Shown piece after piece: positions 95 through 1,184 of a stretch of 23,294 bases of DNA. The notes under the pieces are model-generated. The model searched no databases and was not told the DNA's origin. It saw only the letters and a list, made by a program, of their open reading frames with translations. Position 1 is the first letter of the stretch. Every line of letters begins with the position of its first letter. The DNA comes from a virus (Duplodnaviria > Heunggongvirae > Uroviricota > Caudoviricetes). Made by a program: the position numbers and the translations under genes. The stretch lies in IMG/VR virus record IMGVR_UViG_2579778702_000001, one strand, 5' to 3'.

Positions 95-622
95 ATGATG
101 CACTTAAAGAACATAAAAGCGGGTAATGCTAAAACACTGGAACAGTATGAGTTAACAAAGAAACACGGAGTTATCTGGCTTTACTCTGAGGACGGAAAAA
201 ACTGGTATGAGGAAGTGAAAAACTTTCAGCCAGACACCATAAAGATTGTTTACGATGAAAATAATATTATTGTTGCCATCACCAGAGATGCCTCCACGCT
301 TAATCCCGAAGGTTTTAGCGTCGTCGAGGTTCCCGATATAACGGCCAATCGTCGGACCGATGATTCCGGTAAGTGGATGTTTAAGGACGGAGCTGTGGTT
401 AAACGGATTTATACGGCTGACGAACAGCAACAACAGGCCGAATCACAAAAGGCCGCATTGCTTTCCGAAGCTGAATCAGTCATCCAGCCGCTGGAACGCG
501 CTGTCAGGCTGAATATGGCAACAGACGAGGAACGCACACGACTGGAAGCATGGGAACGCTACAGTGTTCTGGTCAGCCGTGTGGATACGGCAAATCCTGA
601 ATGGCCACAAAAGCCTGAATAA
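95..622 (+). CDS. tail fibre assembly protein, inverted-orientation paralogue (Mu U'-like position)
   Basis: 175-aa ORF ([40 protein letters not shown]...), roughly two-thirds identical by eye to the minus-strand tfa product at 651-1184, which begins [40 protein letters not shown]. The two genes are convergent. Confidence 0.85.
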
Positions 623-627
623 AAATT

Positions 628-647
628 AAGGCCCGATAGCGGGCCTT
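628..647. terminator. perfect 8-bp GC-rich hairpin between the convergent tfa stop codons; putative terminator
   Basis: aaggcccg-atag-cgggcctt lies between the plus-strand stop (620-622) and the minus-strand stop (651-653). The minus-strand transcript has a U-run after the hairpin (plus-strand aaaaatt at 621-627); the plus-strand side has only a weak U-tract. Confidence 0.5.
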
Positions 648-650
648 CTC

Positions 651-1184
651 TCATTCTGGTTGTTCTGGAAACGTTACTGGCAGGCTGGAGGTGTCTGTGG
701 ATTCAACCTTCTGCGCATAGAGCATCCACTCGGTTAATTTTTGTTTATTCTCATCGGAAATGATGCCCAGCCGTAGCTGAGAGTCCCACAGTTGGGTTTT
801 ATCCCTGACGAGCTGCAGCAGGCTCTGCTTTTCATTTTCCGCTTGTTGCCTTTGCTCTTCCTCGGTATAAGTTCGCTTTATCACCGCACCATCTTTGAAC
901 ATCCAGTTGCCCGAAATATCAGCCCGGCGATTTGCTGTAATATCAGGCAACTCAACGACACTTAAACCTTCTGGATTAATTGCTGATACATCCTTGTCTA
1001 TAGCAATAATTATTCCCTCAACTGTGTAAGCCAGTTTTATTGTATCCTCCTGAAAGTTTTTTAATTCCTCATACCAATTTTTTCCATCTTCGGACCATAA
1101 CCAGATAACATCAAAATTCTTTGTTAGCTGGTATTGTTCAACGGTTTTTGGATTACCTGCGACAATGTTTTTTAAATGCTGCAT
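651..1184 (-). CDS. tfa: tail fibre assembly protein (chaperone for the expressed stf tip)
   Basis: 177-aa ORF starting 2 nt after the stf stop. It is a Tfa-family paralogue of the 95-622 ORF and sits where lambda has tfa. Confidence 0.9.

Follow-up and report, generated by a model that had tools for sequence, protein, structure and literature searches.

Why would a lambda-like prophage carry two Tfa-family genes that face each other across a few tens of nucleotides, with a perfect hairpin between their stop codons? The question is raised by positions 95 to 1,184 of IMGVR_UViG_2579778702_000001, a Caudoviricetes record in IMG/VR of 23,294 nucleotides (nt), the whole of which is referred to here as the window. 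Our analysis suggests, with a probability that we put at roughly 0.8, that the gene pair forms the centre of an invertible host-range cassette of the type of the Mu G segment and the P1 C segment, joined in this case to the stf gene of a lambda-like prophage. The arrangement is already known from a textbook system, and the spacer between the two genes is identical to the one between U and U' of Mu.

Two Tfa paralogues of the U and U' types

Both open reading frames (ORFs), of 175 and 177 amino acids (aa), are complete, face each other, and score above the curated Pfam cut-off of 22.1 bits for PF02413, Caudo_TAP (Table 1). When aligned by BLASTP they share 100 of 177 residues (56%, E = 3e-72), and this identity is unevenly spread, amounting to 70% in residues 1-60, 70% in residues 61-120 and 28% in the last 57 residues (121-177). 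An AlphaFold model of the 177-aa protein places two helices in the region of the drop (residues 108-138 and 144-161, with a predicted local distance difference test score, pLDDT, of 82-96), while residues 1-105 have a pLDDT below 50, leaving the N-domain without a model at an alignment depth of two sequences. Each gene stands directly 3' of a fibre reading frame: the silent tfa starts at 95, following the stop codon of the silent fibre cassette at 91-93, and the expressed tfa starts at 1184, next to the stf stop codon at 1187-1189. The two tfa stop codons (620-622 and 651-653) enclose a spacer of 28 nt (623-650), in which positions 628-647 read AAGGCCCG-ATAG-CGGGCCTT, a perfect stem of 8 base pairs (bp), six of them G-C and two A-T, with a loop of 4 nt. 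In these respects the original prediction was right: it had described two complete, facing Tfa ORFs, an 8-bp GC hairpin between stops 28 nt apart, conserved N-terminal and differing C-terminal halves (to be checked by the alignment given here), and the membership of one paralogue in an expressed and of the other in a silent tail fibre cassette. Taken together, family assignment, alignment and gene order mark the two ORFs as true Tfa paralogues, one per tail fibre cassette, and both are putative chaperones of the cognate fibre.

The relatives of the pair are well known. The U/U' regions of Mu, D108, P1 and P7, as well as those of numerous Mu-like and P2-like phages, show about 85% DNA identity to window 1-1400. 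The 175-aa Tfa is 91% identical to Mu U and 93% identical to P1 U, and it matches chain B of PDB entry 5yvq, 'Tail fiber assembly protein U' (5yvq_B), with E = 4e-103. The 177-aa Tfa is 86% identical to U' of Mu and 85% to U' of P1, and from residue 111 to its end it is 100% identical to Mu U'. These similarities identify the pair as the orthologues of Mu/P1 U and U'. The fibre gene tells the same story, in that the junction motif YLGLRELG begins at residue 626 of Stf and the C-terminal part of the protein matches PDB 8ju3 (Mu S/S') and 5yvq_A (Mu S).

A probable invertible segment and the remnant of its invertase gene

The segment consists of two alternative units, each a fibre C-terminus with its tfa, in inverted orientation; one full unit and both tfa genes lie in the window, and the second fibre cassette, of which the window holds the last 30 codons, was otherwise taken from relatives. 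Among complete E. coli genomes the best match over the whole window is 95.5% identical, and the upstream context was inferred from relatives, foremost strain H1 (NZ_OZ040035.1, our locus L001), which is 100% identical over 1-1400, 99.1% over 1-4014 and 86% beyond. The upstream content is alike in four relatives, namely H1, NCTC86 (locus L002), the ST131 strain 81009 and TW10828, and comprises the rest of the silent fibre cassette, a gene of 60-64 codons annotated as 'recombinase family protein', tfa fragments with a methyltransferase gene, and then potB or ompW. Positions 1-93 correspond to the 3' end of an 894-bp partial coding sequence for a 'tail fiber protein' in relatives whose identity to window 1-1400 is 100% and 99.6%. 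Alignment of this silent cassette with the expressed one showed that the first ~253 aa after the crossover are the same except for the first residue and one R/K change, and that the last 55-62 aa diverge.

The gix/cix-like site of the window (Table 1) has a partner in the relatives, TTATCTAAAACCTCGGTTTACGAGAA at L001 5135-5160, which agrees with Mu gix at 23 of 26 positions and has the same central dinucleotide as the window site. Both 26-bp sites sit at the outer ends of a long inverted repeat. In H1, 739 of the 783 nt of this repeat are perfectly identical between the arms (L001 5144-5882, mirrored in window 1377-2115), and the window's own arm matches the H1 left arm at 99.1%. Such perfect identity over 739 nt suggests that the arms recently underwent gene conversion or exchange. 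Arms identical over this length also make the orientation of the segment hard to resolve with short reads.

An intact serine invertase gene adjacent to the segment was not found in the four relatives, each of which retains 60-64 codons of the gene. Over nt 1-191 of Mu gin the remnant shows 96% identity, and in L001 it is interrupted by in-frame stops at codons 61 and 65; it covers the counterpart of the enhancer annotated in P1 cin (54/68 aligned with the P1 enhancer). On the far side of the truncated recombinase, a gene for a class I S-adenosylmethionine (SAM)-dependent methyltransferase lies between two tfa 3' fragments in every relative (L001 3708-4858; L086 1726-2858; L096 6557-7707), an arrangement that looks like debris of further tail fibre cassettes. 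The same prophage end with the truncated recombinase adjoins potB in L001 and an ompW fragment in L002 and L086.

Based on these parts, we propose that inversion between the two gix-like sites would put one of two units, each made of a fibre tip and its Tfa, behind the constant part of stf, and that in the current state the unit of the 177-aa Tfa would be expressed and that of the 175-aa Tfa silent. Because the ~253 aa after the crossover are alike in both cassettes, switching would change no more than the last 55-62 aa of the fibre and the Tfa. The hairpin would end transcripts after the expressed tfa; antisense transcription of the silent unit, and beyond it entry into the invertase gene, might thus be prevented. 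Since the gin-like invertase gene is truncated, to about 60 codons, in every relative examined, flipping would need an invertase acting in trans or RecA-dependent recombination across the long repeat.

Table 1. Coordinates of the features of the cassette and of the adjoining genes in the window
Feature	Position	Strand	Description
Silent fibre C-terminal cassette end (S'-position)	1..93	+	Last 30 codons and stop; remainder upstream of the window
Silent tfa	95..622	+	175 aa; PF02413 (Caudo_TAP), 129.9 bits; Mu U / P1 U orthologue with U-type C-terminal domain
Intrinsic-terminator-like element	618..647	-	Stem-loop 647..628, followed by tail AATTTTTATT (627..618); terminator scan
Expressed tfa	651..1184	-	177 aa; PF02413, 117.9 bits; U'-type C-terminal domain and mosaic N-domain
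Tip-specific end of the expressed fibre	1190..1352	-	Last ~55 aa; sole fibre stretch not shared with the silent cassette
Inverted repeat, right arm	1348..2130	.	783 nt; other arm upstream in relatives; arms in H1 99% complementary
gix/cix-like 26-bp crossover site	2099..2124	.	TTCTCGTAAACCGAGGTATTCGATAA, inside stf; 22/26 identical to Mu gix TTATCCAAAACCTCGGTTTACAGGAA
stf	1187..3991	-	934 aa; PF08400, 238.5 bits (residues 1-134); Mu/P1-type invertible C-terminal part fused at ~626
lom	4055..4660	-	Lambda-like order
J	4728..8207	-	Lambda-like order

Comparison with known invertible fibre segments

The closest counterpart in layout is the G segment of Mu and D108 (S, U, U', S', gin), with which the present locus shares a 528-bp U, a 28-nt spacer, a 534-bp U', flanking fibre cassettes, gix-type sites and a gin-like gene. 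It differs from Mu in its constant part, which is Mu S in the one case and a lambda-type Stf (PF08400) in the other, and in its inverted repeats, which measure 34 bp in Mu and 783 nt in the lineage of the window, where the difference between the two fibres is confined to the ends described above. In addition, with 38-44% identity the fibre tips of the window belong to types other than those of Mu S and S', the relatives of the window have a truncated gin, and the expressed Tfa has a mosaic N-domain. The C segment of P1 and P7 (S, U, U', Sv', cin) is similar in its U/U' pair (93% and 85% identity), its 28-nt gap with a hairpin and its long inverted repeats inside the segment, and the expressed tip of the window is 75% identical to the tip of P1 S. 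However, P1 pairs that tip type with U, whereas the window pairs it with a Tfa that has a U'-type C-domain; moreover, the crossover sites of the window's lineage are closer to gix than to P1 cix, and the carrier is a lambda-like prophage.

The P segment of e14 in E. coli K-12 (stfP-tfaP / tfaE-stfE, pinE) is likewise an invertible fibre segment of the Din type with convergent tfa genes in a cryptic prophage. In e14, however, tfaP and tfaE overlap by 29 nt (L097 4518-4546) and have neither spacer nor dedicated hairpin, pinE is intact, and the homology of the two Tfa proteins is confined to the C-domains, their N-terminal parts being unrelated, which is the reverse of the U/U' pattern. The hairpin thus seems to be a feature of the Mu/P1-type module rather than of Din segments in general. 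Phage lambda resembles the window in the end of its late operon, J-lom-stf-tfa, in the PF08400 domain at the N-terminus of Stf and in its PF02413 Tfa; to our knowledge, lambda has a single stf-tfa set without an invertible cassette.

Structure and conservation of the hairpin

The hairpin has the shape of a terminator, as had been proposed, on the - strand, which is that of the currently expressed stf-tfa: there the stem is followed by AATTTTTATT, a tail that overlaps the complement of the silent tfa stop codon, and the element was called by the terminator scan and is among the two strongest sites within 1-4800. Folding of a 61-nt piece gave -22.5 kcal/mol and z = -4.32 on this strand, where none of 200 shuffled sequences folded as well; on the + strand z was -2.96, and one shuffled sequence out of 200 did as well. 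The proposal that the hairpin serves both genes symmetrically as a terminator did not hold, since the scan was run on both strands and the + strand, with a tail of CTCTCATT that has 4 T in 8, failed it. The GenBank record of D108 annotates rho-independent terminators on both strands in the U/U' gap, and Rfam gave no match anywhere in the window.

In 58 related loci with a 28-nt spacer, minor alleles were counted 5 times in the 16 stem columns, 50 times in the 4 loop columns and 34 times in the 8 flank columns; with a near-invariant stem and variable loop and flanks, the stem appears conserved against variable surroundings. This conservation is alike in lambdoid, P2-like, Mu-like and P1-like carriers, and the ST131 prophage, in which the spacer is 30 nt long and more divergent, keeps a 7-bp version of the stem with another loop. 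Compensatory changes in the stem were not seen among the 58 loci, which are not independent of one another, so the pattern is one of conservation and not of covariation. A scan of genome contigs with a Tfa alignment yielded 6 loci only and no wider diversity, and hence likewise limited the hairpin analysis to conservation. We also considered flipping of the hairpin itself, as the loops ATAG and CTAT are reverse complements, and rejected it as unneeded, the intermediate ATAT being common. A U'/U pair with the same hairpin and a 27-nt spacer occurs on NZ_JBQPOM010000071.1, a contig with the Gram-positive label 'Vagococcus sp. WN89Y', which may reflect contamination or assembly mislabelling.

Given its canonical shape on the expressed strand and its conservation in every carrier type, we keep the terminator as the most likely function of the hairpin element as such.

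Alternative explanations

Whether the hairpin would also act as a terminator in this particular carrier depends on how stf-tfa is transcribed. The original prediction had invoked an 'stf promoter'; on the - strand, however, no sigma-70-like promoter was found within 1-4800, and terminator-like hairpins with T-runs precede stf, one after J (4709..4690) and one after lom (4021..4008, 17 nt before the stf start codon), which together suggest that transcription probably comes from a lambda-type late promoter under Q antitermination. In a late operon of the lambda type, polymerase that starts at a single promoter and has been modified by Q reads past intrinsic terminators. In the closely related H1 prophage (86% identity past lom), a gene for an antitermination protein is located upstream of the lysis genes, and the hairpin may be leaky or idle in this lambda-like carrier. 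We therefore give considerable weight, albeit short of even odds, to the alternative that it does not terminate late transcription here and is an inherited part of the Mu/P1 module that acts at most as a 3'-end stabiliser or on Q-free polymerase. Gene order and ORF sizes of the lambda type, the antitermination gene of the related prophage, the - strand devoid of promoter-like sites and the two hairpins upstream of stf, which need read-through for any expression of stf-tfa, fit this alternative, while the strong conservation of the stem across all four carrier types and the full canonical terminator shape on the expressed strand speak against it. Polymerase reading past the hairpin would enter the invertase gene in the sense direction, as in Mu, and insulation of that gene is a plausible added role. 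A related question is whether the switch can still be thrown. At a query coverage of at least 80%, the arrangement of the window, i.e., the constant stf with the expressed tip, was found in 7 genomes, and the opposite joint, in which the constant stf is followed by the silent tip of the window and by the N-terminal portion of the silent tfa, in 206 genomes, so that both joint types exist in nature. The 206 genomes have another Tfa C-domain or other phage backbones; some of them carry P2-like phages with an intact invertase, and others the ST131 prophage, in which the flank with the truncated recombinase is shared at 99.7% identity. As the ST131 prophage shares this flank and yet has the opposite joint, rearrangement after the loss of the invertase is likely. 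It is rather unlikely, in our estimate, that the cassette is a frozen relic with a destroyed invertase gene and a silent unit that is never expressed and is drifting. The in-frame stops in the recombinase of all relatives examined and the single orientation of the 7 genomes would be expected of a relic; the silent tfa, however, is intact and 91-93% identical to the functional U of Mu and P1, the repeat is perfect over the 739 nt that point to recent arm exchange, prophages with the same truncated recombinase carry the unit with the silent tip (tip B) in the opposite position, and both the crossover sites and the 5' end of gin, with the putative enhancer, have been retained. The perfect inverted repeat would be a good RecA substrate, and there is precedent for a Pin enzyme acting in trans: the Qin prophage's PinQ has been shown experimentally to invert the P segment of e14 (PMC12529663). 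Prophage e14 with pinE, sought in H1 as a source of a trans-acting invertase, was absent from icd, the only place searched, where another lambda-like prophage sits. This second prophage of H1 (NZ_OZ040035.1 2880000-2909400) is complete, lies about 10 kilobases from the potB prophage and carries an ompC-like porin gene and quuD. Several observations weigh against our proposal of a switch with a terminator at its centre. The window ends 93 nt into the silent fibre cassette, so that the second site, the left arm and the truncated invertase are seen in relatives only, and all 7 genomes with the exact arrangement have it in one orientation; a polymerase modified by Q, as suggested by the antitermination gene of the H1 prophage, would pass an intrinsic terminator, and two further terminator-like hairpins already stand between J and stf. 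Lastly, adjacency of tip and Tfa in a genome is no proof of a working pair, and the ST131 prophage, which has an insertion sequence (IS) element in lom, may be defective.

The divergence of the C-terminal halves, in turn, had been taken to match each chaperone to its own fibre tip, and this part of the original prediction was not supported by the comparison of units, in which the same tip occurs with either type of C-domain and the same C-domain with tips that are only 35-40% identical. The silent unit of the window and the expressed unit of the ST131 prophage have tips (last 60 aa) that are 100% identical and Tfa N-domains that are 94% identical, with C-domains at 30%, one being of the U and the other of the U' type. 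Conversely, between the silent unit and P1 S-U the tips are 35%, the N-domains 89% and the C-domains 100% identical, and between the expressed unit and P1 S-U the values are 75%, 79% and 28%, again with C-domains of opposite type. Across 89 unique units of tip and Tfa, tip similarity tracks that of the N-domain (r = 0.85) better than that of the C-domain (r = 0.62), and natural C-domain chimeras exist, the breakpoint in the ST131 Tfa lying in a conserved hinge near residue 100. Two accounts of the published structural work on Mu Tfa agree with this, placing the binding of the fibre C-terminus in the variable N-domain and assigning oligomerisation to the conserved C-domain (PMC9608196, PMC7882524). 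It is thus improbable that the C-terminal halves determine specificity, each by co-adaptation to the tip of its own fibre, even though the fibre tips differ along with the last 57 residues (28% identity), S' of Mu and P1 always occurs with U' in the sampled loci, and tip cluster 0 always occurs with C-type 0 (30 unique units). The difference between the U- and U'-type C-domains appears instead to be a fixed property of the central module and not a match to the adjacent tip, each of the 61 convergent pairs (61/61) having one C-domain of either type and never two alike. One might speculate that selection at the DNA level keeps the C-terminal coding regions near the symmetry centre dissimilar, as near-identical convergent copies with only 28 nt between them would make up a long quasi-palindrome prone to instability. 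The nucleotide identity of the arms, which is 42-55% in the ~200 nt by the centre, about 70% in the region of the tfa N-domains and 100% in the outer 739 nt, would fit, as would the constant pairing of one type with the other and the uncoupling of C-domain type from tip. Yet the fibre-tip region, farther from the centre, is divergent as well, so that the gradient is not monotonic; the 61/61 may stem from a single ancient event, the sampled loci being closely related; and e14 has two convergent genes, tfaP and tfaE, that share 29 nt and encode homologous C-domains (~35% identity). We consider this explanation doubtful. The support for palindrome avoidance as the keeper of the U/U' pairing is weak and phylogenetically non-independent, and the wider scheme in which C-domains are generic with respect to the tip, the one-of-each pairing is kept by palindrome avoidance, and units of tip and Tfa N-domain are reshuffled via the hinge (residues ~80-105) is equally tentative.

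The surrounding operon

The - strand of the window is laid out as a lambda-like late operon, in which the succession of ORF sizes is that of lambda, beginning with the large terminase subunit, continuing with the head and tail genes and closing with J, lom, stf and the 177-aa tfa. Two ORFs in alternative frames, at 2587-3594 (-; 335 aa) and 2745-3494 (+; 249 aa), lie in the middle of stf, which is rich in Ala, Ser and Thr; they are in all likelihood artefacts, given how repetitive and biased the codon content is there. Tandem Repeats Finder detected no array in 1-4800. In NCTC86, stf (L002 7187-9991) is annotated in two pieces, an N-terminal pseudogene part and a separate C-terminal coding sequence, and by this comparison the gene is disrupted in that strain and intact in the window. 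The identity to the closest record, that of H1, drops from 99.1% to 86.5% at the lom-stf boundary (window 4014-4077), which argues that the stf-tfa switch module and the remaining tail operon differ in history and meet at a mosaic joint.

Significance

The analysis supports annotating the first 2.1 kilobases of the window as a host-range switch of the Mu/P1 type on a lambda-like prophage, of a kind that is found in hundreds of E. coli genomes. The natural chimeras indicate that the fibre tip travels with the N-domain of Tfa and not with its C-domain, in agreement with the published structural model, and this linkage is relevant wherever pairs of fibre and chaperone are to be engineered. In this lineage the invertase appears to be dead, while the crossover sites, the region with the putative enhancer and the perfect 739-nt inverted repeat remain, and thus any switching of the host-range cassette would be driven in trans or by homologous recombination.

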